DNA from: Nitrosopumilus sp.
Lineage (GTDB): Archaea; Thermoproteota; Nitrososphaeria; Nitrososphaerales; Nitrosopumilaceae
Assembly: GCA_965207075.1 (NCBI GenBank)
Contig: CBDBLO010000002.1
Span: 96,001-160,000, forward strand
Length of the DNA: 64,000 bases
Reading direction: 5' to 3'
Each line of letters opens with the position of its first letter. Position 1 is the stretch's first letter. The notes beneath the pieces are model-generated. The model was not told the DNA's origin and ran no database searches. It saw only the letters and a list, made by a program, of their open reading frames with translations. A program made the translations under genes and the position numbers. Shown in pieces: positions 32,486 through 59,535 of this stretch.

Positions 32486-32761
32486 ATCGCCTATCGCGTT
32501 CATTATGGTGTACTGCAGCACGGGGACGTATAAATCGCGTATCCGACAACCATGGATTGTCAGTTGCTTGACTATAAACCCCCCCGGAAAGGGCAACCGC
32601 CCGCTCTCCTCCCTCTTTTATCCACCCCGCGCCCACGGAGAGCGCGGAATAGGTGCAGGAATCCACCAACGCAGCTGCAGGGGGAAGGGATCCCGGCTGT
32701 GATAATGTTCTGTTATCTGGCTCGTTGACTACGCAGCCACGTCAAGGGGCTTGTCACGCGT

Positions 32762-34303
32762 TCAATAGTCCTTTAGTACAGCATCATCGGTTATGTTGCG
32801 ATCTAACCTGTCTGAGCAGTACGTCACCATCTTTTTGATATTGTCATAGTCAGGATAACCTTTGCCCACTCCCGACATTGGATCGATCTCGCCTATCTTG
32901 GACAGGGTGTCGCGTATCTCCTGAATCAGCTCGGAATGCATGATGTCGTTTGACTCGCTTATCATCTCGTTGGCGCGGGTTGTAGTCAGGTTCATGGTCT
33001 TGGATGCGTCTGCGATGGAAGATTGGACGGAATCGTACGTGCCAGTCTTTTTGAGACACATGTTTATCAGGCCGATACTCATGAGTATTACTCCAAGTTG
33101 GTTCTTGAGCTCCTGCTTGACGAATATGGCCCTGCTCTTCCGGGATTCGGCGTCGTATTTGATCAAGGCTATTGTAGTACGCATTCGGTTGCGATACAGG
33201 AACGTCAACAGCAATACGGCTGCTCCTGTAGCAATCAGAATCAAGTAAAGGCTGTCCGAACCCAGGGTGTACCCGATGTAACCGCTTACAAACGGGCCCA
33301 CCACCAGCCCTATTCCGTACAGCCCCTCGTACGTCCCTATCATTCTCCCAGCGGTGAACTTTTTGGAACCGGCCAGTAGCATGTCGAGAGTCACCGGATA
33401 TATGGAAATGAATCCAAATCCCAGCAACAGCATAGCAACGACAAACTCTGCAAAGGTGGTGGCCATCATTGATACGGCCATGGCTATGATCACGCACGAC
33501 GTGGACAGCAGAAGTGTCTCCCTTCTGTGTTCGGCCAGCTTCTTTGCCAGAAACGATCCTAAAATCCTGGTGATCCCAAAGACGGCATACAGCTGCATTA
33601 CGGCGGCGGCGTCGAATCCATGCTCCTGTATAAATACCGGATACAGTGACAAAACCAAGCCGAATGCGATGGTGCTGTATATCAGTACTGTAACCTGTAC
33701 TGGAAATTTCAGTACCTCCTTGAACAGGCGAAGATCTAGCTGGACTCCCTTTGACTTGTGATGCGGGTAATTTAGTACGATCAAGACAATTCCGGTACTT
33801 GTTATGATTGCTGTAATCAGAAGGAGCGTACGGTCATCCACTCCGAACGCTCCTAGTATGAACGATCCGACCAGCGGTCCTATCATAAAGCCTATCACGC
33901 GGCACATCGTGAGCATCGCCGTGAGCCTTACCCTCGTCTCGGGGTTTTGGGAGATGGCGTGTATCGCCGGTGGCCATATCAGGGAGTATGCAAAGCCCAA
34001 TAGGAGGCAGTACAGTGTGAGCTCCGTTATGGTGGTCGAGGTGGATATCAGGTACATCGCCAGGGCAGACGTTGCAAAGCCCGCCGTAAGCAGGTATTTG
34101 TCGTTTATGCGACCCAGCACGATCCCTAGCGCCAGCGGTACCAGAATATACGGCAGACAAGTCACAGTTACTATCATTCCGATATCACTGTAGGTCGCAC
34201 CCAACTCGTTGGCGGCAAAGATTGGCACTATTGGGGCGCGTATACCCCAAACGAAGCCGACCAGTAGTGATGCAGATAGCAACAGATACGTAGTCCGGCG
34301 CAC
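32762..34303 (-). CDS. MFS transporter with C-terminal HisKA/DHp-like helical domain (copy 2)
   Basis: Paralog of 30025-31560 with the same KQELKNQLGVI motif. Probable GTG start at 34303. Confidence 0.85.
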   Translation of the reverse strand: MRRTTYLLLSASLLVGFVWGIRAPIVPIFAANELGATYSDIGMIVTVTCLPYILVPLALGIVLGRINDKYLLTAGFATSALAMYLISTSTTITELTLYCLLLGFAYSLIWPPAIHAISQNPETRVRLTAMLTMCRVIGFMIGPLVGSFILGAFGVDDRTLLLITAIITSTGIVLIVLNYPHHKSKGVQLDLRLFKEVLKFPVQVTVLIYSTIAFGLVLSLYPVFIQEHGFDAAAVMQLYAVFGITRILGSFLAKKLAEHRRETLLLSTSCVIIAMAVSMMATTFAEFVVAMLLLGFGFISIYPVTLDMLLAGSKKFTAGRMIGTYEGLYGIGLVVGPFVSGYIGYTLGSDSLYLILIATGAAVLLLTFLYRNRMRTTIALIKYDAESRKSRAIFVKQELKNQLGVILMSIGLINMCLKKTGTYDSVQSSIADASKTMNLTTTRANEMISESNDIMHSELIQEIRDTLSKIGEIDPMSGVGKGYPDYDNIKKMVTYCSDRLDRNITDDAVLKDY

Positions 34304-34434
34304 GTAACGTGTGGCAAACGTCTTGAATATATTTTCGATGGGCGTGGCCCACAGGTTATTGATTCGATTCCGCCCAAGTCCTTCAACAGCATGTCTGACA
34401 CGCCGAGGTTCCGCTTCCTCCACGTCAGCACGCA

Positions 34435-45511: not shown

Positions 45512-46807
45512 TCAGCGGCAGATCGTGGCAGACGTATCCGCCACAGGGCGCCAGCCGTATCCGTCGGACTTTGGGTATACCTCATACTGGGTGTACGTGA
45601 GCGGAAAGTCCATGTCCCCGTCCGCGCCGAGCCTGTACTCGCCGAGCGCCCCGTCGCCGACGCTCCTGTCTGAGTGGTGGTGTTCGTGGGTGTCCAGCCC
45701 GGCCGCGACGTCGAGTATGAGTGACCTGACCGTGGACGTGGAGTTTATCGCAAGCTCCTCATCGTTTACGATTACGGTGTCTGCGAGCAGAAAGACCGCG
45801 TCATATGTGTTGTACCCATACGTGGAGTCATCCGTAAATGACTGGATTGGAATCGCGCGGTTTGTGGGATTCGGAACGGCCTCAAACTGTGATGCCACAT
45901 AGCCTACGGATTCCAGAAATTGAGCCACGACGGCGTTGCCTGCAATGGCGCTGCTCTGGGACGTTCCGTCCGCCCCGTACCACTTTACAGCACCAAGCGT
46001 GTCGGACAGTTCCGCGTTGGATGCAATGTGCTCGACTAGGGCGATCGTATCGCCGACAAACGACATCTGCACGACTGCAACCGCGTCTGCCCCGTGCGCG
46101 GAGACAAGTTCGTCGACCTCTGCCGCAGCCTGCGCTGCCACGGCAGGTGCGTTGGTGCCATCTTCATCCATCCGGATGGTGAGCGCCACGTTGCCTGCAT
46201 ATTCTTGGGCTATGGCGTCGCGGATCCCCTCACCCCATATGTCATTCCGGTATATGAGAACTATGTACCCCTTGCCGTCGTCTATGAGGCTCTCTGAGAT
46301 GACGACGGACTGTGCAGAGTCGTCTGGAACGAGCCTAAAGAGGCTGTCGTCTTCAATGGCAAGCTGTACGGCGGTGGAGGCCGGCGAGAGCAGGACGACG
46401 TCGTTGGTGGTGTCGGTATACGCCTTGGCCCTGTCAGCCGTCGAGCTGCACATTGGTCCGATGAAATACCGGAACCCCTCAGACTCCAGCTGCTTTATCG
46501 TGTCTACGACTACCTTGTTTGGGTCGCACGGATCTCCGTCGGTCAGGTCGATCACCCTGCTTGTGATGTAATAGTTTGATGTCGTAATGTCCGACTGCTC
46601 GCGGTTGTATGCCTCTACCGCATAATTGAACGCATCCTTGTGCCCAAAGTCGCTCAAGAGCGCAATCTTGATCTCGCCGTCGACGGTCTGGGCAGAGGTG
46701 TCGTGCACGAACAGGCCGTCCTCGGCCGTCACACCGCCAATGGAAAGAGCCGCCGCAACCGCAACAACTGCGCACAGCGCGGGTGTTGGGATCCCTAGAA
46801 GCTTCAC
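45512..46807 (-). CDS. LivK-like substrate-binding protein, orphan (paralog of 19654-21009)
   Basis: Signal peptide, FIGPMCS, LSPASTA, LFRLVPDDSAQ, WYGADG, YDAVFLLA. Confidence 0.85.
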   Translation of the reverse strand: MKLLGIPTPALCAVVAVAAALSIGGVTAEDGLFVHDTSAQTVDGEIKIALLSDFGHKDAFNYAVEAYNREQSDITTSNYYITSRVIDLTDGDPCDPNKVVVDTIKQLESEGFRYFIGPMCSSTADRAKAYTDTTNDVVLLSPASTAVQLAIEDDSLFRLVPDDSAQSVVISESLIDDGKGYIVLIYRNDIWGEGIRDAIAQEYAGNVALTIRMDEDGTNAPAVAAQAAAEVDELVSAHGADAVAVVQMSFVGDTIALVEHIASNAELSDTLGAVKWYGADGTSQSSAIAGNAVVAQFLESVGYVASQFEAVPNPTNRAIPIQSFTDDSTYGYNTYDAVFLLADTVIVNDEELAINSTSTVRSLILDVAAGLDTHEHHHSDRSVGDGALGEYRLGADGDMDFPLTYTQYEVYPKSDGYGWRPVADTSATICR

Positions 46808-46829
46808 TTTACACTATTCCAATGTGGAG

Positions 46830-46843
46830 TATATAAGTTCACG
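46830..46843 (-). promoter_or_regulatory. BRE-TATA promoter of the substrate-binding protein gene
   Basis: Minus strand CGTGAA-CTTATATA, with the TATA box 23-30 nt upstream of the GTG at 46807. Confidence 0.65.
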
Positions 46844-46852
46844 CTGCCGCCG

Positions 46853-48103
46853 GGCGCTGTCCAACTTTTCACCGCCAAAGTCACGAAAAGCTTAAAGATC
46901 ATGACGCGCCCCGGTGGCAAAGCTTATTGATCATATTGTAATCGCCATGTCAATGGCTTCCAAAAGAAGCAAGAAGGACGACAAGAAAAGACAGGATGCC
47001 CATGTGCGGGCATACAAGGCGGAACGGCGAAGGCAGAAGATCAAGGAGTGCCGCGACTACAAGACGTATGAGAGAAAGCGAAGGGGCGAGGGCAGGGTGA
47101 AGAGGATCAGGATCAAGCAGCTAGCTAAACTGATCCGCGACACCCTGCCAGACGCCACAGATACGAACGTTTCCAGGATCGTGTGCGTCGTAGACATGAC
47201 ATACCGCGGCCACTCGTACCGCAGACACGTCGAGTACCTGGATGAGCATTCAGGCTCCGTAAGCATGTACGGGCTAAAAAGAGTTCCCTCGAAATCCGGC
47301 CTCCACGGCTGGGCAGGGGAGCTTGCAGGCGACATGGAGTTCGTGCTGGGGCTCCTCGCCAGACAGGCCGGGGACGACGCGCGCGGCACCCTGCTGGGCG
47401 ACTCGTCGGGGTTCTCCATAGTGAAATACGAGGACTGGGAGGACGCCAAGCGCGGGATCATATCCCGGCGCGAGTTCGACAAGCTCCACATACTGGTCGC
47501 GCCGCACGGCAGGATCGCGACGTGCGCGGTAACCGCGGGACGGCGGCACGACTCGCCGGTGTTCCGGGAGATGTACGGGCGCATACCGCAGGGAAGCGGC
47601 CGCACCATACTGGACGCCGCGTACCTGTGCAAGGCAAACTGCAGGATGATCGCGCGCAGCGGGCGCAGTCCGGTCATATGCCCAAAGGGGAACTCCCGGG
47701 CAAGGGGGCTGCATCCGATGGGCCAGATGCTGAAGTGGTACGAGAGCGACCGTGACGGGTTTGACAGGGCATACCACCAGCGGAGCCTGGTCGAGACCGC
47801 GTTCTCCGTCATCAAGGAGAGGTTTGGCGCCGTCGCGCGCGCAAAGACGTTCCGCATGAGGCAGCTGCAGCTCGCGCTAAAGTGCGTCTGCTACAATCTC
47901 GTCGCCTGATTCCGCATCCGCCCGCAGGGGGGCAGTGCACCCCCCCAGCGTACGCTGCAGACTGATGCGCCACACGCAACCAAAAACCGGAGACTTGCCG
48001 CCGGACATGCCACAATTGCGGCAGAAACGGACCCGCCCATCGCCTAAAGCCCGCTTAATTGTCCATAAAATTGGGGCGCGGCTTACAAGAGTTGGACAGC
48101 GCC
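46853..48103 (+). mobile_element. complete IS5-family insertion sequence (IS903-like ends), 1251 bp
   Basis: TIR GGCGCTGTCCAACT at both ends; 9-bp TSD CTGCCGCCG at 46844-46852 and 48104-48112. Confidence 0.92.
46914..47909 (+). CDS. DDE transposase
   Basis: GDSSGF, KLHILV, LDAAY, YHQRSLVETAFSVIKERFG (YREK motif). Confidence 0.93.
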   Translation: MAKLIDHIVIAMSMASKRSKKDDKKRQDAHVRAYKAERRRQKIKECRDYKTYERKRRGEGRVKRIRIKQLAKLIRDTLPDATDTNVSRIVCVVDMTYRGHSYRRHVEYLDEHSGSVSMYGLKRVPSKSGLHGWAGELAGDMEFVLGLLARQAGDDARGTLLGDSSGFSIVKYEDWEDAKRGIISRREFDKLHILVAPHGRIATCAVTAGRRHDSPVFREMYGRIPQGSGRTILDAAYLCKANCRMIARSGRSPVICPKGNSRARGLHPMGQMLKWYESDRDGFDRAYHQRSLVETAFSVIKERFGAVARAKTFRMRQLQLALKCVCYNLVA

Positions 48104-48461
48104 CTGCCGCCGGGGCCGAACACATGGCAACGTCCACCACCACCACCACCCCCACGAACCGGCCTGTTTGGGTCGATCTTATCGGATGCTAGGATTCCAG
48201 AATTCGTGCGTGTTGCGCGAGGGAGGGGACGAACGGTTGCCGGACTCGTCTCCCGCCCGCAAAGTCTGAGGATGCGGGATGGCAGACACGAACTTTCAGG
48301 GGGCTTGGGTCCCTGCGGCGCCAAAGGTCATCCCCCTCCTCCACGCACGCCCCGCCGTACTGACCAAGTGATCCTTGCTCAAACGCCAACTATTCCCTAG
48401 CACGGGTGCCATGCGCGCCCGCAACGCACACATAAAGCAGGGACGCGCCCACCGCAGTCGG

Positions 48462-49007
48462 ATGGCAGAAAGCAGGTTCTCGGAGGTAACGCTGACGTCG
48501 CCCAAGGCCGAATACTCCCCCGGCGAGAACGTCGAGATAACGGCAGAGTTCTCCATACAGGGAGGGATCAGGAACGCCTTCAACGAGGACGACTGGACCA
48601 AGGCCTACGAGGCAAACGACGTCTCATTCAAGCTCAAGTACGGCGCAAGGCTGGTCACGGCAGGCGGCTTTAGAAAGAAGGCGGTGGGAAGGCCCGTCGA
48701 CACCTACCGCAAGGCATCCATATTCTGGACCAGAAACCCAAAGCTGGTCAACCCCATGAAGGACAAGCGCATATGGGTCCAAGTGGCAAAGAACTTCGAG
48801 CCGTACATCAGGCTGTCGGAGGATGAGGTCCGGGGCGAGCTGTTCGACTTTGCAGAGACGTTCGTCATAAAGCCGTCGGAGCTGGGAGGCGGGGGCACTC
48901 ACAGGATAGGCGCCGAGGTGTACGCGTCGTGGCAAAAGCACCAGTATGCCGAGGCAGGCAGCATAAAGAACGACTCGGACGGAATCGAGATTACGATTCT
49001 CAATTAG
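48462..49007 (+). CDS. hypothetical protein
   Basis: Clean ORF with host-like codon usage, YRKASIFWTRNPKLVNPM, TATA-like CATAAAG upstream. Confidence 0.75.
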   Translation: MAESRFSEVTLTSPKAEYSPGENVEITAEFSIQGGIRNAFNEDDWTKAYEANDVSFKLKYGARLVTAGGFRKKAVGRPVDTYRKASIFWTRNPKLVNPMKDKRIWVQVAKNFEPYIRLSEDEVRGELFDFAETFVIKPSELGGGGTHRIGAEVYASWQKHQYAEAGSIKNDSDGIEITILN

Positions 49008-49038
49008 GGATATAAGGAACTCTGCAGGAGCGTGACGC

Positions 49039-49191
49039 ATGGCAAAGTACGACGGACTGCTGGGACAGCCCGTGCTAGAGGTCGAAGAGCCCGACAAGGA
49101 GGGCGGAATCACGTTCATCTTCAAGGACAACAGGTTCCTCTTCATAAAGGCAAGGGACGGCAAGATAGACACGATCTCGATACCGGAGTGA
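49039..49191 (+). CDS. 50-aa hypothetical protein (absent from the ORF track)
   Basis: MAKYDGLLGQPVLEVEEPDKEGGITFIFKDNRFLFIKARDGKIDTISIPE*; ATATAAG box upstream. Confidence 0.75.
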   Translation: MAKYDGLLGQPVLEVEEPDKEGGITFIFKDNRFLFIKARDGKIDTISIPE

Positions 49192-49206
49192 CGCGGAGGC
49201 CGTACA

Positions 49207-49371
49207 ATGGAAAAGTTTGATCCGATAAAGATGCAGGAGCTGGTAAAGGTCATCGACCCGGAGGACGGTGGCGGTGGCGGCAGGCTGACACTTGTCTTTC
49301 AGAACGGCAAGACGCTCTACATCAGCATAGCAGGCGACGGCGGGCTCGTGGCAGAGTTTGCAGAGGACTGA
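49207..49371 (+). CDS. 54-aa hypothetical protein, apparent paralog of 49039-49191 (absent from the ORF track)
   Basis: MEKFDPIKMQELVKVIDPEDGGGGGRLTLVFQNGKTLYISIAGDGGLVAEFAED*. Confidence 0.7.
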   Translation: MEKFDPIKMQELVKVIDPEDGGGGGRLTLVFQNGKTLYISIAGDGGLVAEFAED

Positions 49372-49422
49372 GCGGCCGCGCCGGGCGGCAGCCAGATCTG
49401 GCATGATCGCATCAGTGGTTGG

Positions 49423-49956
49423 TCACGGTTGCTCCCCGTCGTCACGCCCGTCGGGGCCTGCATGCTGCCTTGCAAAAAAGGCCACCGCGGTCTCCTGTTC
49501 TGCCGACTGGATGGAGCCCGGCCTCTTCTCCCTGATCTCGCGTATGGCCTGCTCGGCGGTACGCCCCCCGTATTTAATCAGATAACAGGCAAGGACGGTC
49601 CCCGCCCTGCCCAGCCCTGCCGCGCAGTGCACCATTACGGGGCGGCCCTCCCTAATCTGCGCGTCGATAAAGTCGGCCGCGTCGTTCAGGCGCCCATGAT
49701 CCGGGGCCGTAAGGTCCGGGGTTGGAACGTGCAGGTACCTCGCGCCCGAGGACGCTATCCATTGCGGAGGCAGCGGGTCCTCAGTCATTGTAACTATGCA
49801 CTTTATGCCCTGTGAGCCTACCGCCCAGTCAAGCTCGTCCCGGCTTGTGGGCCTGCCCGAGCCTGCAAGCCTGCCGTCGACCACCCATGAAAAGTTGGTC
49901 GGTCTTTTCGTAATGCGTCCGTGGACCTTTCTCCACATGTTTCCCGGCCTGCTCAT
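49423..49956 (-). CDS. dual-specificity / protein tyrosine phosphatase
   Basis: NFSWV, VHCAAGLGRAG (CX5R), RPGSIQ..EQ. Confidence 0.93.
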   Translation of the reverse strand: MSRPGNMWRKVHGRITKRPTNFSWVVDGRLAGSGRPTSRDELDWAVGSQGIKCIVTMTEDPLPPQWIASSGARYLHVPTPDLTAPDHGRLNDAADFIDAQIREGRPVMVHCAAGLGRAGTVLACYLIKYGGRTAEQAIREIREKRPGSIQSAEQETAVAFFARQHAGPDGRDDGEQP

Positions 49957-50050
49957 CGCGCGTACGGCAGGGGACGGCTCATTTTTATCTTGCCGGCCCT
50001 GCTGCTGCTGCTACTGCTGCGGTGCACGCGCCCCGTCCCCCCGCCGCGCA

Positions 50051-50755
50051 TCATCTGCTGAGCGCCAGGGCCCTGACCGGGGAGCCGCTTGCGCCCCTCA
50101 GTTTTAGCGGAAGTATGACAAAGTCAAACTCGCTTGAACGTATCTTCCCAAGGTTTGCCAGGTTCTCCACTATTACGGCCCCGGCCTCTGCCAGTACGCG
50201 GTGGGCCGGGAATCCGGGGTCGCCCCCCACGTCTATGCTGGGCGAGTCTATCCCCACCAGTCCCACCCCCTTTGATGCCAGGTATCTTGCGGCCGACCGG
50301 TCAATTCCGGGGTTTGCCAGAAAATAGTCCTTGGAGCCGAGGTGCCCCTCCTGCCAGCCGGTATAGAATATCACCGGCGTGCCGGGCCGTATTGCGCGGC
50401 CGTCCCTTGACTCCTCAAACTCCCTGATGTCGTCTTTGGTGATGGCGCGGCGGTCGCGGCGCCGGCGCTGCGCGGCGGTCGCGGCGCCGGCAGTCCTGAT
50501 CAGAACGGCCCTCCCGACAAGCCTCTCGGGCTTGATCTGGTCGACCCTGAGCCCGTCCCTTGCAAAGTGGTACGGGGCGTCAAGGTGCGTCCCGGAATGA
50601 GTGCTGGCAAGGAGCAGCTCTAGGTTGTATCCATCCTCGTCAAGGGTGGACCATCCTATGAACTGCGGCCTGGGCGAGCCCGGAAACGTCGGGAGCGTCT
50701 TTGATATGGCGAGGGTAAGGTCAAGCGGCTTCAGTGGCCTCCCCGGTGCCTGCAT
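50051..50755 (-). CDS. cyclase family protein (kynurenine formamidase-like)
   Basis: THSGTHLDAPYH, GIDSPSID, IVENL, PLKL.GASGSPVRA. Confidence 0.92.
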   Translation of the reverse strand: MQAPGRPLKPLDLTLAISKTLPTFPGSPRPQFIGWSTLDEDGYNLELLLASTHSGTHLDAPYHFARDGLRVDQIKPERLVGRAVLIRTAGAATAAQRRRRDRRAITKDDIREFEESRDGRAIRPGTPVIFYTGWQEGHLGSKDYFLANPGIDRSAARYLASKGVGLVGIDSPSIDVGGDPGFPAHRVLAEAGAVIVENLANLGKIRSSEFDFVILPLKLRGASGSPVRALALSR

Positions 50756-50965
50756 GTGGCAATGGCCGCGGCCATGGTAAATATGTCATATGCCGGCCGG
50801 TGCGGCATGCGGTGGGGGGGGGAGGCGGGGTGGCGGCAGGGAGGAGCGCATGAGCCCGTCCTTTCTCTTGCGTCAGCCGGCCGGCCCCCTCGTACACGCT
50901 TGCCGCGCCGACAGCATGCGGGGGCATCCATGAAAGGTTAAATACACTTTGGACGGAGTCCAAGC

Positions 50966-51220
50966 GTGCCGACTGCGTACGTCCTGCTCAATTCTGATCT
51001 GGGATCCGACGAGTCCATAATCGACGAGGTAAAGCAGATACTGGAGTCGGAGAACGCCAAGTTCGAGATACAGGGGGTGTATGGAGTGTACGACATAGTC
51101 CTCAAGCTGACGGCCGACGATCCGGAAGAGCTGCGCGGAATAATAACGGACAGGATCAGGAAGATAGGCAAGGTCCAGTCCACCCTGACCATGATGGTAA
51201 TAGAGGGGCAGGGACAGTAG
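50966..51220 (+). CDS. Lrp/AsnC ligand-binding domain protein
   Basis: AYVLLN, VYGVYDIVLK, IRKI..V.STLTM. Confidence 0.9.
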   Translation: MPTAYVLLNSDLGSDESIIDEVKQILESENAKFEIQGVYGVYDIVLKLTADDPEELRGIITDRIRKIGKVQSTLTMMVIEGQGQ

Positions 51221-51233
51221 CAGCATGCAGGGC

Positions 51234-52535
51234 CTACAGCCTCTTTAGCGCATCGAGCAGCGCGTGCATATCGCCCTCGGTATTGAAAAAATGGGGCGAC
51301 GCCCGCACGTGCTCGAGGCTTCCCTGTGAGCGGACGGCGAGTATTATCCCCCGCCGCGCCAGTCTCTCAACCACCTGTCCCGGGCTCGTGCCGCCGATGT
51401 TAAATGATATGATGCTGGTGCGCCTTGCGGGATCGTCTGGCACATACACGGCGACGCCGGGCATCCGGCTTAGCTCGTCATACAGCAGGCCCGCTAGGTT
51501 CCGGTTTATCGCGCGTATGCGGCCGAGGCCGACACCCGTCACATACTCCAGGGAGGCCTCCAGCCCGGCCACCCCGGCATAGTTTCTAAAGCCGGCCTGG
51601 AACCTGTCTGGCGCGTCCTTGAGGGCAAGGCGCCGGGGCGCCGTGTCATTGCTGCTGCCGCTGTCGTTGCTGTTGCTGCTGCCGCTGCTGTCGCGGCCAT
51701 TGCCGCCTTCACCACTGCTGCAGCAAGCATCATGACCATCCAGTGTGGCAGACTCCCCCCCTATCATTATGGGATCCAAGGTGCGGCCTGCCTCCCGGCT
51801 GCAGTAAAACAGTCCGGTGCCCATGGGGCCGCACAGCCATTTTGAGCCGTTAAACGACATATAGTCGCAGCCTATGCGGGAGACGTCGCAGTCTGCAGGG
51901 TCTATGCAGCCGACGGTCTGCGCCGCGTCAAGAAAGAATCTGCAGCCGTCCGCGCGCTCCCTTATGACGCCGCCCGCCTCCTCTACCGGCAGGATGGCGC
52001 CTGTGTTGTACAGGGCGTGGCTCAAGACGACCAGTCCGGCGTGCCCGTCAAGAAGGGACGCGAGCTGGCCCATCTCAAAGAGCCCGTCTCGGTCTATCCC
52101 GAGGCTCCTGATTCGGACGCCTCTCTCGGCCAGCCGGAGCCACGGATACAGGTTGGCATGGTGTTCGTGCTCCATGCCCCGAATTATCACCCCGGCCGCG
52201 TCGGCGCCTAGTCCGAGCCCGCTGGCCACCATGTTTACCCCGTCCGTGGTACTCTGGGTCAGCACGACCTCGTCCGGGCTGCACGAGATTATCTTTGAAA
52301 TCATGCTCCTGACGTTTTGGATCTTTTTTGTTACGAGCTCTTTGGATACGGCAGAGTCCGGTCCCGCCGAATTGTACTCTATCAGAAAGTCCCTCATGGC
52401 GTCTATGCTCGGCTCTGGCATCACGGAGACGGACGCGCTGTTCAGGTAGATTCTGTCTCCCGTGTATGCAAAGTCGTCTGCAAAATCACTCTTGGCCCCT
52501 CCGGCGGGGCGGGCAGTGGAATCATCCAAGCTCAT
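51234..52535 (-). CDS. class V PLP enzyme (cysteine desulfurase / lyase-like)
   Basis: IYLNSAS, STTDG, EHHAN, LDAAQTVG, NGSKWLCGP.GTG, RASPHFFN. Confidence 0.88.
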   Translation of the reverse strand: MSLDDSTARPAGGAKSDFADDFAYTGDRIYLNSASVSVMPEPSIDAMRDFLIEYNSAGPDSAVSKELVTKKIQNVRSMISKIISCSPDEVVLTQSTTDGVNMVASGLGLGADAAGVIIRGMEHEHHANLYPWLRLAERGVRIRSLGIDRDGLFEMGQLASLLDGHAGLVVLSHALYNTGAILPVEEAGGVIRERADGCRFFLDAAQTVGCIDPADCDVSRIGCDYMSFNGSKWLCGPMGTGLFYCSREAGRTLDPIMIGGESATLDGHDACCSSGEGGNGRDSSGSSNSNDSGSSNDTAPRRLALKDAPDRFQAGFRNYAGVAGLEASLEYVTGVGLGRIRAINRNLAGLLYDELSRMPGVAVYVPDDPARRTSIISFNIGGTSPGQVVERLARRGIILAVRSQGSLEHVRASPHFFNTEGDMHALLDALKRL

Positions 52536-52564
52536 TATTATGTCTCAAGCAGCTACCACACGTG

Positions 52565-53263
52565 ATGGATAAAAACCATGGCGGGGCGGGCGGAAAGGGG
52601 TCCGGGCAGGAGGGACAGCCGCCGCCGTCCGCGCCCTCGCATGCAGAACTGCTCGCGCGAAGACTGACAGGCCGGGAGGGACCCCCGCTGAGCGTCATAC
52701 TCTGCACCGGCGCGGCCGCAAAGACGCGGTTTCTGCGCGCGGCGGCCGGCGCGGCGGCCGGATCCGTGCTGTACATGGACACGGATCTGCTGTACGCGGG
52801 GTGCGCAAGGGCGGGCCTCGAAAGGATCCGCGACCGCACGACCCTAGTCTGCCCCGACCAGGACACGTGGCACCGCGATCTTGCATCTGCCATATCCGCG
52901 TCGTCCGCCGGCAGGATGACCGTCATAATAGACTCGCTGAACGGGATCTACGAGATGTACGGTGGGGCTGACTCGGCCATGACTGCAAACACGCACATAA
53001 TGGCCCTCGCGTCGCTTGCAGGGCAGGCCGGCTCGGCCGTCATAGTAGGGGTGCGGGTAAGGAGAAGGATGAGTATGAAGGCGAACGGGTTCGGCGGCGG
53101 CGGCGGCAGAGAGGCGGCGTATGCCGCCCAGCCCACGGCGGCGACTGCCGGGGAATGGGTGCTGCACCCCGGGGGAAGGCAGGTTCCGCGCATGGCGGCC
53201 GACAGCACTTACCTGCTGCCGCCCGAAGGCACGGACGCGCCGCCTGGCAAGGTAGAGGTGTAG
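52565..53263 (+). CDS. hypothetical protein, degenerate RecA-like fold
   Basis: AAAKT, VLYMDTD, VIIDSLNG; Walker A motif degenerate. Confidence 0.55.
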   Translation: MDKNHGGAGGKGSGQEGQPPPSAPSHAELLARRLTGREGPPLSVILCTGAAAKTRFLRAAAGAAAGSVLYMDTDLLYAGCARAGLERIRDRTTLVCPDQDTWHRDLASAISASSAGRMTVIIDSLNGIYEMYGGADSAMTANTHIMALASLAGQAGSAVIVGVRVRRRMSMKANGFGGGGGREAAYAAQPTAATAGEWVLHPGGRQVPRMAADSTYLLPPEGTDAPPGKVEV

Positions 53264-53375
53264 CCGCAACGGCATGCGATCGTTTTCATAACGGTGTTAT
53301 AAAACGGCAAACGCCGTTATAGGTCATGGTTTTACGGCAAGCCTTATTAACAATGAATGGAGATTCTGAATCACA

Positions 53376-53675
53376 ATGCCAGTAGGAATTATTCCTGACA
53401 TCAGCGAACAGATGTGCATAGGCTGTGCACTATGTGTGGAGATCTGTACAACTCTGGGACCTGATGTGCTAAGAGTAAAACCAGTCGAGGGCTGGAAGAG
53501 AGGCAAGGCGTTTGTCTTTTATCCGGAGAGATGCATCTCTGACGGCGCATGCATTGGCGTGTGCCCGACGAAGGCAATCTTTTGGATGAGGCCGATGGAC
53601 TTTACCGTCGGACAACCCGTGCCGCTCTACAAGAACTCAGTCTTTGTAAAGGGCTGGACTGAACTGATTGACTAA
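53376..53675 (+). CDS. 2x[4Fe-4S]-type ferredoxin
   Basis: CIGCALCVEIC and CISDGACIGVCP (second cluster motif has Asp in place of Cys). Confidence 0.93.
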   Translation: MPVGIIPDISEQMCIGCALCVEICTTLGPDVLRVKPVEGWKRGKAFVFYPERCISDGACIGVCPTKAIFWMRPMDFTVGQPVPLYKNSVFVKGWTELID

Positions 53676-53689
53676 GTCGGTTCCAAACC

Positions 53690-53707
53690 TTTTTTTATTT
53701 TATTTTT
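53690..53707 (+). terminator. oligo-T archaeal terminator after the ferredoxin gene
   Basis: TTTTTTTATTTTATTTTT about 15 nt after the stop codon. Confidence 0.7.
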
Positions 53708-53737
53708 GGGCGGGTCTGCCGCGCCTGGGCGTAGTGG

Positions 53738-54940
53738 TCACGGCGGCGGCTGTTGCCGCTGCCCGAATCCGAACCTTGCGGCCCAGCCCCCTCCCGACGG
53801 CTTCTCTTCCTTCTTGTCCTTCCTCTTTGACGGCTTCTGGCCCACCGATATGCTCTCAAGCATCTCGTATGTTATGGTAAACCCGCCCCCCACCATGGTC
53901 GCGTCCTTTGCATACGATTCCTTGTCCCGGACAAGCTCGTCGGGAAGCGTCCTTATGCGCTTGGTCTTGAGGTTGAAGAGGCGTATGGCCTTGCCCGAAC
54001 CCTCCAGTTTTATCACGGCGTCGCCGCTCAGCCCCTGTATCGAGAACTGCTCAAAGAACCGGATGGTGCCGCCCCGCTTCAGTATGATTGCCGAATCGTA
54101 CGTAAGCTTGCCGCCGTAAAACAGCAGCTCGCGGGCAGATATCACCACGTCGTCCTCCACGTTGAGCACCATCACGGTGTCGGCCTCCAGCGAGACCGTA
54201 TTGACCACGTTCTCGGCGATTATCCTGCCCCGGGGGGCCGAGATCCTGGTGCGGTACTCTTGCATGTGGAACACGCCGACCCTGCCCTCCTGGTCGTCCA
54301 CCCTGTACTTGCGGCCGAACACGTTTCCGACGATGGCGCTGCCGTCCTCCACCGTAATGGAGGCCCCGTTCTCTATCCTGTACTTGTTCTCAAGCGGGTT
54401 TACCAGCTTGAAGTCGCCCCGGGTGAGCCGTATCCGGGTGCGGTACTCCTCGGCCCACGACGGGCTTGTAACGTTGCCGCTCATCGTAATGGGGCCGTCA
54501 TACGTCAGGCTGCCGGCCATAAAGTTGCCCTTTATCGAGAGGGCTCCGTTTGCCTTGCGCTCAAGCTCGATCTCCCCCAGCGTCTTTGAGCCGAACAGCT
54601 TTGACGCGGTCATGTTGGCGCGGTTCAGGGCGGCCGCCCACTCCTCGGCGGCCATCATCTCCTTGTGTATCTGCTGGCCCAGTATCTGGTTGCGCCTCTT
54701 CACGTCGGCGTCCGTGTCCCCCGCAAACACCCTCGAGTTTCTCAGGCGCTCGTCGTCCGTGTCCGGATACTTTTTGCCCGCCTTCAGGTCCTCGTACGCC
54801 TGCTTGATGCGGATGAACTGCTTGCTCTCGCCCCCGCGATCAGAATGCAGCCGGAGCGCAAGCTGCCTGAACGCGTCCCGGACCTCCCTATCCGTGGAGT
54901 CCTCGGGCACCCCCAGAATGTCATAGTTTGATTCGACCAT
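53738..54940 (-). CDS. J-domain (DnaJ-like) protein with beta-rich C-terminal domain
   Basis: NYDILGV, AFRQLALRLHSDRGG, F.RIKQAYE.L. Confidence 0.85.
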   Translation of the reverse strand: MVESNYDILGVPEDSTDREVRDAFRQLALRLHSDRGGESKQFIRIKQAYEDLKAGKKYPDTDDERLRNSRVFAGDTDADVKRRNQILGQQIHKEMMAAEEWAAALNRANMTASKLFGSKTLGEIELERKANGALSIKGNFMAGSLTYDGPITMSGNVTSPSWAEEYRTRIRLTRGDFKLVNPLENKYRIENGASITVEDGSAIVGNVFGRKYRVDDQEGRVGVFHMQEYRTRISAPRGRIIAENVVNTVSLEADTVMVLNVEDDVVISARELLFYGGKLTYDSAIILKRGGTIRFFEQFSIQGLSGDAVIKLEGSGKAIRLFNLKTKRIRTLPDELVRDKESYAKDATMVGGGFTITYEMLESISVGQKPSKRKDKKEEKPSGGGWAARFGFGQRQQPPP

Positions 54941-55024
54941 CCCAGACCTGCAGTGGGTCAGTCGGGTTTCATATTTGTGGTTTGATGCGCCGCAGTGCGG
55001 TGACGGTGGCGGCGGGAAGAGCGG

Positions 55025-56512
55025 CTAGGCGTCCGCATACATGGAGATCTCCCACGCGGTGGGGGTCTGTGCAAACGACGAGTACTCGCTGTACTTTAGG
55101 TCTGCGTACACCTCCAGAAAGTCCCTTGTAAACACGTCTACGAGGAACTCCCTGTCGCTTGCAAGCGAGTCGAGGGCGCCCTTCAGCGACGCGGGCAGCG
55201 AGCTGATGTTGTACTCGCGCTTCTTCTCGGGGGTGAGCCTGTATACGTTCTCCTCGACGGGGTCGCCCGGATCAAGCTTTCTCCGGATGCCGTCAAGCCC
55301 GGCCAGCAGCAGAGCCGCCTCCAGCAGGTAGATGTTGGCAGTCGGGTCCGGCACGCGGTACTCGATCCTCTTGCTCTTCTCCTGGTGCCGGGTGTACATG
55401 GGCACCCTCACGGCCGCGGAGCGGTTTCCCAGGCCCCAGCAGACGTTTACCGGCGCCTCAAAGCCCGGAACGAGCCGCTTGTACGAGTTCGTGGTGGGGT
55501 TTGTTATGGCGCAGAGCGCCTCTGCGTGATCCAGTATGCCCCCCACGTAGTACCTGCCGGCCTGGCTGATCTGTGCCACCAGGTCGTTCTCGTCGTACAT
55601 CTCGTTTGTCTGGCCGTTCCACAGGCTCTGGTGCGTGTGCATGGCCGACGCGTTGTCGCCGAATATCGGCTTTGGCATGAACGTCGCCACCCTGTTCTTG
55701 CGCTTTGCCTTTACCTTTACGAGGTTCTTCACCGTGACCACGTTGTCGGCCATCGGTATCATGCGCCCGTACCGGAGGTTGACCTCGCACTGGCCGGACG
55801 TCGCAACCTCGTGGTGCTCGGCCTCGACCTCTATGCCAAAGTGGCGGTACAGGTCCACGCAGACGTCCTTGCGGAACCCGTCAAGCGTGTCCTTTGGCTG
55901 CGAGGGATAGTACCCCTCGCGCACCTCGATGGCGGTGCTGACGTTTCCCTTGGACCAGGGCGACTCCTTGGACTCGATCGAGTACCCGGAGCCCGCGCCG
56001 GAGTGGGTCGCCGCGTACGGCGAGGGATACACGCTTATCGCGTCGAATATGAAGAACTCTATCTCTGGCCCCCAGCTCGTGTGCGTGAACCCGAGCTCGG
56101 ACAGCTTGCCCGCCGCCTTTTCGGCTATTCCGCGCGAGTCCCGGTTGTACCTGGCGTCCGGATGCGTGCTCCCGTCGTACAGGTCGCATATTATCCGCGC
56201 GTTCTTGCGGCCGTGGCCGCCGCCGCTGCCTGCGCCCATGTCATAGTCGTCGGGAAGTATGCGGAACGTGGACGGGTCGGGCAGCATCACCATGTCGGAC
56301 TTGTTGACCGTCTTGAACCCCACAATGGAGCTTCCGTCCAGCTTTTCAAGCCCGTTTACAAAGTTGTCCTCGTCTATCGCATAGGTGGGCATCCCCACAT
56401 TGTGCAGCTCGCCGAAGACGTCCACAAACCAAAAGTCGATAAAGGAGATGCCCTCGCTCTCGACGACATCAAGAACCCTGCCTGCCGTCATCTCCTCGCT
56501 TCCCGTGCTCAT
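55025..56512 (-). CDS. glnA: glutamine synthetase type I
   Basis: LDGSSI.GF, GPEIEFF, HHEVA..GQCE, TFMPKP, NSYKRLVPGFEAP, NRSAAVRVP, IEYRVPDP. Confidence 0.97.
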   Translation of the reverse strand: MSTGSEEMTAGRVLDVVESEGISFIDFWFVDVFGELHNVGMPTYAIDEDNFVNGLEKLDGSSIVGFKTVNKSDMVMLPDPSTFRILPDDYDMGAGSGGGHGRKNARIICDLYDGSTHPDARYNRDSRGIAEKAAGKLSELGFTHTSWGPEIEFFIFDAISVYPSPYAATHSGAGSGYSIESKESPWSKGNVSTAIEVREGYYPSQPKDTLDGFRKDVCVDLYRHFGIEVEAEHHEVATSGQCEVNLRYGRMIPMADNVVTVKNLVKVKAKRKNRVATFMPKPIFGDNASAMHTHQSLWNGQTNEMYDENDLVAQISQAGRYYVGGILDHAEALCAITNPTTNSYKRLVPGFEAPVNVCWGLGNRSAAVRVPMYTRHQEKSKRIEYRVPDPTANIYLLEAALLLAGLDGIRRKLDPGDPVEENVYRLTPEKKREYNISSLPASLKGALDSLASDREFLVDVFTRDFLEVYADLKYSEYSSFAQTPTAWEISMYADA

Positions 56513-56732
56513 GACATACCGTTGCAGAGGTATTATTTAATGGCAAGCGTGCCGCGGCCAACCCAGGGGTTCGGCCTCCCCGCCGCCACCCTCGGGGGGG
56601 GAGGATTCAAGCCGGTCTGAATGAAACGCACGAGTTCGCGTCGGGCGTAAAAGGCAGCCGCGGCGTGGAACTTGTGCCTGATTGCAGGAGCTTCCGTACT
56701 GCACGGCCCCGCGGCGTGGCGTATCCAGATCG

Positions 56733-57908
56733 TCAGCCCTCGTCGCTAAGTATCGGCCCCATATGCCCAGATACAAGCGCGTGGTCGGCTATTACAAGCG
56801 AGACCAGCGCGTCGACTATGGGCGGGGCCCGCGGAACCGCGCACGGGTCGAACCGCCCCTTTATGGTCAGCGGGGCTTCGCTCATCGTGTCTACGTTAAC
56901 GGCAGGTTGTTCCTTCAACAGGGAGGGAACCGGCTTGAAGGCGACCCTCATCGTGATGGGCATGCCGTTTGATATCCCTCCCAGAATGCCGCCGGCGTTG
57001 TTTGTGCGCGTGATTATGCGCGGGCTGCCACCGCTGCCGTCATGGCCGTCTACGACCGCGTACGTGTCGTTGTTCTCTGAGCCGTAAAGCTTCGAGCCGG
57101 CAAAGCCGGAGCCAAACTCCACGCCCTTGACGGACGGAATCGAGAACATGGCCGAGCTTATGTCGGACTCGAGTGAGCCGAAGATAGGTTCGCCCAGTCC
57201 GACCGGCACCCCGGTCGTCACGGATTGTATGACCCCCCCGATCGAGTCGGCCCTCCTCTTTGTCTCCAATAGGGTTTCCCTCATGGCGGCGGCGGTGGTG
57301 GGATCGGGGCATCTTACGTCGTTGCCGTATATCGTGGCGTCGTCATATGTGACGGCGGACCCGCTACCACCGCGTGGCGCAGCTGCGGGCGTCTCCGCCG
57401 TGGCCGCCGGCATGGCAGTCGTGCCTATCGATTGAACGTACGAGCAGGTCTCGACACCAAGCGAGATCCTGAGAAGCTTTCGTGCAATTGCCCCCGCCAT
57501 CACATACGTGGCGGTGATCCTGCCAGAGAACCTGCCGCTGCCCCGGATATCGTTGAAGCGGCCGTACTTTACCATGGCCGTATAATCGGCGTGTCCGGGC
57601 CTGAGGTATGCCCTGAGAAGCTCATAGTGGGTCGAGGGCGTGTCCTGGTTCGCCATGAGCATTGCAATGGGCGCGCCGGTCGTGCGCCCGCGATACGTGC
57701 CAGAAATAATCTTGACGACGTCACCCTCCTTGCGCTGGGTATAGAGGATGCTCTGCCCGGGCCTGCGTCGGTCAAGCATGGGCTGGATGTCGGCCTCTGA
57801 GAGTTCTAGGCCTGCAGGGCAGCCGTCAAGCATGGCGCCGATCTGTTGCCCGTTGGCCTCGCCAAAGCTTGATAGCACGAGCCTCTGGCCCATGCTATTT
57901 CTGGACAT
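56733..57908 (-). CDS. aroC: chorismate synthase
   Basis: RRRPGQS, RPGHAD, GSGRFSGR, IPSVKGVEFGSG, NNAGGILGGISNG, FKPVPS, GRFDPC. Confidence 0.95.
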   Translation of the reverse strand: MSRNSMGQRLVLSSFGEANGQQIGAMLDGCPAGLELSEADIQPMLDRRRPGQSILYTQRKEGDVVKIISGTYRGRTTGAPIAMLMANQDTPSTHYELLRAYLRPGHADYTAMVKYGRFNDIRGSGRFSGRITATYVMAGAIARKLLRISLGVETCSYVQSIGTTAMPAATAETPAAAPRGGSGSAVTYDDATIYGNDVRCPDPTTAAAMRETLLETKRRADSIGGVIQSVTTGVPVGLGEPIFGSLESDISSAMFSIPSVKGVEFGSGFAGSKLYGSENNDTYAVVDGHDGSGGSPRIITRTNNAGGILGGISNGMPITMRVAFKPVPSLLKEQPAVNVDTMSEAPLTIKGRFDPCAVPRAPPIVDALVSLVIADHALVSGHMGPILSDEG

Positions 57909-57930
57909 GCCGTCGCTTTGATGAGTGTAC

Positions 57931-57944
57931 TATAAAAGATTATA
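57931..57944 (-). promoter_or_regulatory. TATA/BRE region of aroC
   Basis: Minus strand CTTTTATA 23-30 nt upstream of the ATG at 57908. Confidence 0.65.
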
Positions 57945-57952
57945 TCGCGCCG

Positions 57953-59379
57953 AATTCTGTTTCCTAATTGCACCAGTAGGCACCCGCCTGGCCGGGTGTT
58001 TTTTGCATGTTAGTCAGGTATTTTTCGCCTTGGGTGTTAAGTGTGCATGACACGATGTCCCACCGCACACAAATGATGGGACAAAGATGCCAGGCACAAG
58101 GCATACTTGCAGGGCATGGCTTTAAGCATGGCGCGGCGGCGCGGTCCGTCCGCAGAGGAGGGGACTGTCCGTGAGCAGGGCCGGGCGCGGCGCGGCTGCA
58201 AAGACTGACAACGAAAAGTACGTCAGGCGCGGCGCGGATCTGGTCATTGAATATGATCCGGAGTGGGAGGATGACGTAAGGCGCGCAAACGAGGGCAGGG
58301 TGGGCGCCCCGTACCAGTACGCGGACACGCTCATCATGCTGGCCGCCGGCATCAGGGTCGCGCAGGGGGTCCGGTACAGGCAGCTCCAGGGGATGGTCGG
58401 CAAGATGATAGGCAGGTCCAACGCGCCCGTGTTCAGCCAGCTGTGCAAGCGGATCAACGGGCTTGACACGGACATCCGCCGGGGCCCGGACGGGATGGTG
58501 ACGGTGTCGGACAGGAAGGGGCCGCGGGTGCTGGCGCTCGACGCGAGCGGGCTCAAGCAGCACAACAGGGGCGAATGGATGAGGGCCAAGTGGAAGGTGA
58601 GGCGGGGCTTTGTAAAGATGCACGTGCTGGTCGACACGGAGACCATGAAGGTACTCGCGCTGGAGGTCACCGACGACTCCGTGGGAGACCCGACCATGTT
58701 CGAGTCGCTGCTCGGACAGGTCGTGGACGCGGACGGCGCCAATGCGGAGGACGGCACGCGGCACGCGGAGCCGCCCGCCGCGCCCCGCTCCGACGGCGGC
58801 GGTCCGAGGTACGAAAACCTGCTCGCGTCCGGCGTCTCCCCGCTCGCGTCGTTCTTCCCGGGCGCCCCCCGGGACCGGACCGCGCCCGACCTCCTGCTCG
58901 GCGATGCCGCGTACGGCTCAAGAAAAAACATATCCGCGTGCGCGCGGGCCGGGGTGACACCGGGCATTGCGCACACCATCAACGTGACGGCGCGCGGCAA
59001 GGGATCCGGAGACGCGTGGGGCATGTCGGTAAGGGACCAGATGGGCGGAAGCCCCGACGCGACGCGCCTGGACCTGATGGGCAGGGAGCAGAAGAGGGAG
59101 AACCAGACGTACTGGAAGGCCCGCATAGGCTACGGCTTTCGCTGGCTCGTGGAGAGCGTGTTTTCGGCGTTCAAGCGCCTGTTCGGAGAGCACCTGTTGG
59201 CCCTCAAGTGGGAAAACATCGTGCAGGAGGTAAAACTCAAGGTGATCCAGTACAACAAGTGGAGGGACGAGTCGATAGTGCGGGAGGCGGGAGGCGGGAC
59301 GTCCTGATGGCATGACGCCCATGTCGCCGTCCGATAGGGACTCGGCAGGCATCCAGATGGCGAATTAGGAAACAAAGTT
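57953..59379 (+). mobile_element. complete IS5-family (IS903-group-like) insertion sequence, 1427 bp
   Basis: Imperfect 17-bp TIR AATTCTGTTTCCTAATT / AACTTTGTTTCCTAATT; 8-bp TSD TCGCGCCG at 57945-57952 and 59380-59387. Confidence 0.88.
58171..59307 (+). CDS. IS5-family DDE transposase
   Basis: N.GRVGAPYQY, YRQLQG, LDASGLK..NRGEW, KMHVLVD, GDAAY, WK..IGY..RWLVESVFSAFKRLFGE. Confidence 0.94.
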   Translation: MSRAGRGAAAKTDNEKYVRRGADLVIEYDPEWEDDVRRANEGRVGAPYQYADTLIMLAAGIRVAQGVRYRQLQGMVGKMIGRSNAPVFSQLCKRINGLDTDIRRGPDGMVTVSDRKGPRVLALDASGLKQHNRGEWMRAKWKVRRGFVKMHVLVDTETMKVLALEVTDDSVGDPTMFESLLGQVVDADGANAEDGTRHAEPPAAPRSDGGGPRYENLLASGVSPLASFFPGAPRDRTAPDLLLGDAAYGSRKNISACARAGVTPGIAHTINVTARGKGSGDAWGMSVRDQMGGSPDATRLDLMGREQKRENQTYWKARIGYGFRWLVESVFSAFKRLFGEHLLALKWENIVQEVKLKVIQYNKWRDESIVREAGGGTS

Positions 59380-59535
59380 TCGCGCCGTAGTTCCGGCCCT
59401 TCCTCCATCCAGTCGGGGTTGATTTGTCCTGATCGCTTTTGCGGCCTTCTTGTCCGGGAACGCCGAGCGGGGTTTGGCAGTCATCTACGTCAAGTCACCG
59501 GTCTAGGTTGTGATCAGTCTTCATACACTAATTGG

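Follow-up and report, generated by a model that had tools for sequence, protein, structure and literature searches.

Integration of the yeast long terminal repeat (LTR) retrotransposon Ty3 is directed by TFIIIB (TBP plus Brf1) to the transcription start of genes read by RNA polymerase III (Pol III), and TBP and TFB are the archaeal homologues of TBP and the TFIIB-family factors. IS231A, IS903 and Tn10, which are of the DDE_Tnp_1 type, make target-site duplications (TSDs) of 8 to 9 bp, in some cases 9 to 11 bp. Excerpts of Guerillot et al. 2014 (PMC3942029) describe how TnGBS, ISLre2 and ISKra4 elements insert at sigma-A promoters, 15 to 17 bp upstream of the −35 box, sparing genes. According to the same excerpts, the ISKra4 group and ISLbu1 insert in both orientations when their inverted repeats are symmetric, and the sole remark on archaea there concerns the insertion sequence (IS) ISH6, whose AT-rich target (AANATNTT, duplicated) suggested a possible preference for promoters or intergenic DNA. 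Here we analyze a 64,000-nucleotide stretch of a Nitrosopumilus genome (G000:C2:96001-160000, called the window; the genome measures 2.23 Mb in two contigs at 60% GC), in which two elements, IS_A and IS_B, stand directly upstream of the core promoters of a substrate-binding protein (SBP) gene and of aroC.

Like TnGBS, ISLre2 and ISKra4 as those excerpts present them, the elements studied here keep a constant spacing to a basal promoter element downstream of them, at 22 of 26 sites in this genome and again in relatives. The promoters used by the TnGBS group are bacterial sigma-A promoters, whereas those used here are archaeal, made of a TFB recognition element (BRE) and a TATA box, with the insertion 7 nt from TATA; the excerpts give the transposases of the TnGBS group as Mutator-like (p-MULT 3/4) with a signature, whereas ours fall into DDE_Tnp_1 or rve by Pfam. 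Our elements work like the TnGBS group but, judged by these domains, are not members of it. They share with Ty3 a nucleotide-precise integration beside a promoter of TBP/TFIIB-family factors, contact with those factors being an analogy in our case, and differ from it in that Ty3 integrates at the transcription start, while these are DNA transposons with TSDs at about −37 to −45/−51, upstream of the BRE. With IS231A, IS903 and Tn10 they have in common that deformable AT-rich DNA outside the TSD bears on site choice; the preferences of those elements are symmetric and not tied to promoters, whereas here the preference is one-sided, falls on real promoters and is common to rve-type elements. Full-text literature searches, which did not cover supplements, found no report of promoter-anchored IS insertion in archaea; with the same limit, neither PMC6563490, in which the word “promoter” is absent, nor PMC13548323, in which “TATA” is absent, reports it.

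Both loci in the window have the same order on the minus strand: left TSD, 7 nt, TATA heptamer, 22 nt, start codon (Table 1). The SBP gene has leaderless geometry, and in the relative G070 an AT-rich box occupies the matching place upstream of its own aroC. The original prediction had placed TATA at +23 to +30 and the first base of the TSD at +37, counted upstream from the start codon, at both loci; its coordinates for the two loci proved exact on re-check, and the geometry was confirmed. Its statement that the two elements have unrelated terminal inverted repeats (TIRs) and divergent transposases also holds, the transposases being 28% identical over 121 aa. The family assignment stands in part. 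By the NCBIfam model NF033579 (IS5_2, cut-off 140), IS_B and its relative IS_C belong to the IS5 family (184.8 and 186 bits); IS5_2 is also the best model for IS_A and for a more distant group, IS_D, which at 89.3 and 103.4 bits lie below the cut-off and are therefore called IS5-like only.

Host promoters were modeled from the window's genome, using 1752 genes from a crude codon-usage caller that also underlies our non-coding null. Upstream of the called starts there is an AT peak at −30 to −23 and an A-rich stretch at −34 to −32, which is the leaderless BRE/TATA architecture. An iterated promoter matrix was trained on 850 of the genome's genes, and 16 of its columns (−36 to −21) were used, so that no TSD base was scored. 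At an offset of d=0 the matrix begins directly beside the TSD and the TATA heptamer starts 7 nt away; scores of at least 6.7 counted as a pass. Random 8- to 9-bp targets, tried on either side, pass at d=0 in 0.87% of cases genome-wide and 2.75% in non-coding DNA, and at d=0 to 2 in 1.5% and 4.4%, respectively. The promoter beside the IS_A TSD scored 7.0 to 7.4 and that beside the IS_B TSD 12.0.

Searches with blastn and tblastn located 12 IS5-like copies in the genome. IS_A comprises three near-identical copies (A1 to A3) and a 77% relative (A4); IS_B comprises three near-identical copies (B1 to B3) and two copies of an 89% variant (B4 and B5); C1 is a 47%-identical relative of IS_B, and D1 and D2 form a distant pair. 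All have TIRs of 14 to 18 bp, a single transposase gene and TSDs of 8 bp (B, C and D2) or 9 bp (A and D1). At d=0 the scores were 7.0, 8.3, 9.8 and 4.2 for A1 to A4, 12.0, 11.8, 10.3, 9.9 and 2.5 for B1 to B5, and 6.7 for D1; the true flank of D2 lies behind a later insertion and scored 11.1 to 12.1, and C1 occupies the site of B3. Nine of the 11 distinct sites (10 of the 12 copies) thus pass, with binomial probabilities of 5e-13 at d=0 and 3e-11 at d=0 to 2.

The promoter adjoins the 5′ end of the transposase gene in four copies (A1, B1, B3 and D2) and the 3′ end in six (A2, A3, B2, B4, C1 and D1), so orientation is free. A fixed IS orientation was accordingly rejected, and with it the earlier generalization that the transposase is transcribed away from the host gene, which describes the two window loci and is not a rule. 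The CGCCG ending shared by the two window TSDs fared no better: it is absent from other TSDs (AACGCGCAC, GCGGGTGAC, CACAGAAC, CAATCATT and TTAAGATA among them), and since the IS5-like TSDs have no common motif, we rejected it as a target determinant. The original prediction had named a broad spread of distances and random orientation as the outcome that would speak against it; with all copies mapped and their TSD-to-TATA offsets taken, the distance is fixed and the orientation varied.

More multi-copy elements emerged from a self-comparison of the genome. Among them, families E, J and K (G000:C2:179541..1652747) encode rve-type transposases (Pfam rve) and have 15-bp TSDs; NF033577 (IS481) is their best NCBIfam model at 161 to 177 bits, below its cut-off of 224, and we call them IS481-like. 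At d=0 to 2, nine of the 11 sites of these families pass (E1 11.4, E3 7.5, E5 12.1, E7/K2 9.8, J1 10.6, J2 9.1, J3 6.7, K1 11.2 and K3 7.4); E4, which has no TSD, was left out. Members of the IS481 family give TSDs of up to 15 bp. The 15-bp TSDs of these elements are unusually long, and in relatives the length seems to range from 13 to 16 bp. Family G is ISH3-like (NF033541, 114 bits, below the cut-off of 225) and has a 5-bp TSD in all four copies, the ISH3 family being one with TSDs of about 5 bp; each of the four has a box at d=3 to 4, where the null expectation is 3.6%. A box at d=4 also accompanies one of two IS66-like copies.

Other families in the same genome do not follow the pattern. 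Among the IS630-like families H and L, the DDE_Tnp_4-type family F and the element I with its 4-bp TSD, 1 of 13 copies passes, which matches the null. Targeting families and controls (22/26 versus 1/13) differ with a Fisher p of 5e-6 when the site shared by D2 and E5 is counted once per family, and at those 22 sites the offset varies by no more than 1 nt. The controls occupy other positions, so other positions are tolerated in this genome; the pattern is therefore specific to certain families, and survival alone is insufficient to produce it.

At four loci two elements have used a common promoter-proximal cut. The B3/C1 locus reads TATA-7nt-CAATCATT[IS_B3]CAATCATT[IS_C]CAATCATT, and E7 and K2 are accompanied by three copies of one 15-bp target, GAGATCTTGACTCGT. 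The 15-bp TSD of E5 consists of the 8-bp TSD of D2 plus the first 7 nt of D2 itself, and the 8-bp TSD of B2 is the promoter-side part of the 14 to 15 nt that adjoin a J-like end. With staggers of 8 and 15 nt, the proximal cut is held in common and the distal cut shifts, and another IS may form the distal flank. Constancy is confined to the promoter side, and it is from there alone that the targeting information comes. In a different genus, an IS_B-like copy (L193, G162:C1:1448839-1452969) has a distal flank that resembles the end of an IS of the same kind (AGTTAGTTGCACAAC); from its letters, this looks like another tandem use of one site.

The boxes beside the elements are, for the most part, those of genes. 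Counted once each, 22 sites are TATA-positive; at 16 of them an open reading frame (ORF) of at least 50 aa begins with a start codon 33 to 40 nt from the matrix start, and the targeted genes include those for a thermosome, a methionine-synthase-like protein, aroC, two binding proteins, a hydantoinase-like protein and a cupredoxin-like protein. Genome-wide, only 14 to 34% of matrix matches of equal score have such an ORF (685 of 4133 among non-coding matches). The comparison of 16/22 with the upper value of 0.34 gives p=2e-4, and real promoters are thus preferred over look-alikes. The distance from TSD to TATA is 7 nt, rarely 8, and that from TSD to start codon ranges from 35 to 40 nt; because the former is the tighter, the zero point of the ruler is TATA and not the start site.

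Relatives were scored with the threshold fixed beforehand, and only copies whose ends and TSD a script could resolve were counted. Three further genomes of the genus yielded 20 resolved IS_B/C-like copies, of which 13 score at least 6.7 at d=0, against a null of 0.93% per window (p=2e-18); these 20 come from 42 elements, the other 22 being left out, and two ambiguous copies were counted as misses. One orthologous promoter was hit independently in two species, with insertions upstream of it (L091 and L047) that differ in position by 1 nt. Three of six resolved IS_B/C-like copies pass in two other genera of the family (5 of 11 were unresolved and left out), as do three of seven IS_A-like copies (13 of 20 loci left out likewise) and, at d=2 to 5, six of ten ISH3-like copies (10 of 20 left out). 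A TSD was found in 9 of 20 IS481-like copies from the AT-richer genomes G141 and G036, and 6 of the 9 pass, against a high null of 4.6% per window. A nine-copy, 332-aa family of G002 was left out because its element ends are unclear.

Metagenomes contain the aroC site without the element. Part of the window segment 56733 to 59536 is present in 20 listed runs of 11 studies, none of them recorded as RNA, and four of the runs were examined as contigs. One contig from run X8 joins 57944 to 59380 and so skips 1435 nt, the length of the IS and one TSD copy together, and 8 letters fit both sides; in X7 and X8, loose ends after 57952 run on into the right flank (GTTCCGGCCCTTCC...). Depth in these two is about 225 to 550 over aroC and about 0 to 16 over the IS, the exception being one X8 bin (58143-58236) at 2883, and in X2 IS_B is 2 to 7 times deeper than its flanks. 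The empty site and the depths show that the aroC promoter existed before the insertion and that the insertion is polymorphic between samples. A search of the relatives' genomes for an orthologous empty site found none: aroC and its radical-SAM neighbor are not syntenic there, and the closest aroC is 72% identical. Two X2 contigs end at the left end of IS_B (before 57953) with a different flank (…CACATATAAGAAAACGAACCAAACAAC), which by its sequence appears to be a further IS_B insertion site, with a TATA-like box about 7 nt beyond the 8-nt target.

Table 1. Coordinates of the two window loci (window positions) and of two further IS_B loci in the same genome
Feature	Position	Strand	Details
SBP host gene	45512..46807	-	ORF 431 aa, GTG start at 46807; Pfam ANF_receptor 1.8e-13; periplasmic-type substrate-binding protein
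SBP core promoter	46830..46843	-	TATA heptamer TTATATA 46830-46836 (tatataa on +); 7-nt BRE-position spacer cgtgaac 46837-46843
IS_A TSD, left copy	46844..46852	.	CTGCCGCCG, 9 bp
IS_A element (copy A1)	46853..48103	+	1251 bp; TIR GGCGCTGTCCAACT; IS5-like
IS_A transposase	46914..47909	+	331 aa; Pfam DDE_Tnp_1 5e-17; NCBIfam IS5_2 89.3 bits, below the 140 cut-off
IS_A TSD, right copy	48104..48112	.	CTGCCGCCG
aroC, chorismate synthase	56733..57908	-	391 aa, ATG at 57908; Pfam Chorismate_synt 5.6e-122
aroC core promoter	57931..57944	-	TATA heptamer TTTTATA 57931-57937; 7-nt spacer tataatc 57938-57944
IS_B TSD, left copy	57945..57952	.	TCGCGCCG, 8 bp
IS_B element (copy B1)	57953..59379	+	1427 bp; TIR AAYTYTGTTTCCTAATT; IS5 family
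IS_B transposase	58171..59307	+	378 aa; Pfam DDE_Tnp_1 and DDE_Tnp_1_5; NCBIfam IS5_2 184.8 bits, above the 140 cut-off
IS_B TSD, right copy	59380..59387	.	TCGCGCCG
Locus L005 (B3 and C1)	G000:C2:1586438-1589132		IS_B3 back to back with 47%-identical IS_C (1260 bp, TIR TAGTCTGTTGCATAACTC); three TSD copies CAATCATT
Locus L007 (B5)	G000:C2:2134526-2136200		IS_B variant abuts AbrB-like start codon; weak CTTAAGT box

Some observations concern the surroundings of these elements. Within IS_A, before the transposase start (window 46887-46934), the motif AAAGCTTA(A/T)(A/T)GATCAT occurs twice, 32 nt apart; both copies are placed like a BRE/TATA about 22 nt before a start codon, and they are probably the element's own promoter or promoters. 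On the side of B5 away from its host gene lies an array of tandem repeats of about 33 nt (ggtaaagcgtgtaaagcgcgcgtccggcccacc). The double insertion E7/K2 has a TFB gene (G000:C2:1648981-1649913, L182:865-1797) about 1.5 kb away. Elsewhere in the window, two copies of one sequence of about 1.77 kb stand 1 kb apart (window 29907-31671 and 32646-34417; C2:125907-127671 and 128646-130417). Most of the 45.9-kb contig C1 aligns, in long blocks of at least 85% identity, with C2 over its first ~87 kb, which reflects either a large duplicated or mobile region or redundancy in the assembly.

We propose that the transposition complex would set the promoter-proximal edge of the TSD 7 nt, occasionally 8, upstream of TATA. 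The cut would fall immediately upstream of the BRE, at about −37 from a leaderless start codon; the element can enter either way round, and the distal cut would follow 8, 9 or 15 nt farther, as the stagger of the given element dictates. For the ISH3-like family the landmark would be the same and the ruler 10 to 11 nt. BRE and TATA are left whole, the host gene keeps its core promoter, and the insertion is probably close to neutral. The core of the original prediction, insertion at the upstream edge of BRE/TATA with the promoter left intact, is borne out in more families and genomes than the two elements it was built on, and we hold it very probable that target choice is anchored on a promoter landmark as such. 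By analogy with Ty3 and TFIIIB, this landmark may be the TBP/TFB-bound, sharply bent promoter complex, an identification toward which we lean because three unrelated transposase types obey the rule, because it is one-sided and because real promoters are preferred. The genome encodes two TBPs (one at L178:1198-1761, minus strand) and four TFBs. To the statement as a whole, landmark targeting with the TBP/TFB-bound bent promoter as the landmark, we assign a probability of roughly 0.58.

Several results weigh against this proposal. In the window's genome, A4 (4.2), B5, E2 (5.0) and E6 (2.8) fall below the threshold, which itself was chosen after the first set had been seen and then kept unchanged for every later one. 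B5 stands between a weak palindromic CTTAAG box, 7 nt upstream of it, and the start of an AbrB-like gene; such a placement is consistent with a ruler centered on TATA and not with a “safe” one, and the ruler would then be able to work from either side of the box, with such insertions normally lost. Six of the TATA-positive sites (B3/C1, B4, D1, E3, J1 and G3) lack an ORF at leaderless spacing, and Rfam (E≤0.1) and ARAGORN searches of nine IS loci found no RNA gene that would account for three such TATA sites. Among relatives, 7 of 20 IS_B/C-like copies in the genus, 4 of 7 IS_A-like copies and 3 of 6 IS_B/C-like copies in the other genera miss, and the support from the IS481-like copies of G141 and G036 is weak. 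The crude gene calls behind the non-coding null are a weakness, and all copies seen have survived selection. Finally, against a genomic background of 60% GC, TATA and the A-rich BRE stand out as unusual and deformable DNA, so that a direct read-out of sequence or shape would give the same geometry.

That last point leads to an explanation in which no host protein takes part: a transposase or target-capture complex would read BRE/TATA sequence or shape at a fixed distance. BRE/TATA is the sole sequence common to the targets, our matrix often scores the TATA box in both orientations, and B5 sits 7 nt downstream of a palindromic box, all of which fits such a reading. IS4/IS5-type transposases such as those of IS231A, IS903 and Tn10 are moreover influenced by bendable AT-rich DNA flanking the TSD. 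However, three unrelated types (IS5-like, IS481-like with rve domains, and ISH3-like) would each need the same motif read-out, and the targets are one-sided, the distal flank being in places even the end of another IS, unlike the symmetric preferences of IS231A and IS903. Motif recognition would also leave unaccounted for the over-representation of real promoters (16/22, against at most 34% of equal-score matches). On balance we think targeting by DNA alone unlikely, though clearly worth keeping in view.

Purifying selection could in principle do the work without any targeting, if insertion were random and only elements just upstream of an intact core promoter survived. Intergenic room can be tiny (in A3 the upstream stop codon is 1 nt from the TSD), insertions downstream of TATA would usually be lost, and every copy examined is fixed or assembled. 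Yet the two window sites offer about 307 and 192 nt of intergenic room and both insertions are at exactly 7 nt, and random insertion sits poorly with an offset held within 1 nt at 22 of 26 sites. Control families elsewhere in the same genome (1/13), re-use of an identical cut by different elements and the empty-site contig make selection alone unlikely, and we give it very little weight. Still less credible is adaptive placement, in which IS ends alter expression of the adjacent gene, by removing regulator sites or adding activating sequence, and are kept for that reason. An insertion at −37 does part the core promoter from any upstream operator, and highly used targets such as the thermosome gene are among those hit; but both IS ends and several unrelated elements are found at the same position, the targeted genes have no functional theme, and at aroC the IS is missing from most cells of other samples. 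Chance was a fair concern while the finding rested on two sites, as the original prediction acknowledged. Mapping of all copies (9/11, 9/11 and 4/4, versus 1/13 in controls) has disposed of it, with binomial probabilities of 1e-6 to 1e-18 in the larger sets (the genome itself and the IS_B/C-like relatives) and 1e-4 to about 0.02 in four smaller replication sets, and coincidence is now a negligible explanation.

Even if DNA alone were read, these elements would represent convergent targeting of BRE/TATA by unrelated transposases, which to our knowledge is unreported for archaea. If TBP/TFB-directed targeting is true, insertion sites are free, nucleotide-precise markers of core promoters in uncultured lineages, and these elements offer a simple prokaryotic system in which to examine how integration machinery is tethered to basal transcription factors, a link so far known from yeast Ty3. 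Transposases of this kind might then be developed into tools for promoter-proximal, gene-sparing insertion in archaea. Guidance of transposons by TBP/TFB would also explain how IS-rich, gene-dense archaeal genomes tolerate many elements. More tentatively, and at somewhat less than even odds, we speculate that the basal complex of TBP and TFB on BRE/TATA is a general landing pad for transposons, to which at least three lineages (IS5, IS481-like and ISH3-like) evolved docking independently, each with its own ruler. If so, Ty3-TFIIIB targeting would have a counterpart in prokaryotes, perhaps even its forerunner, and docking of this kind may be a widespread, so far undescribed rule of archaeal genome architecture.

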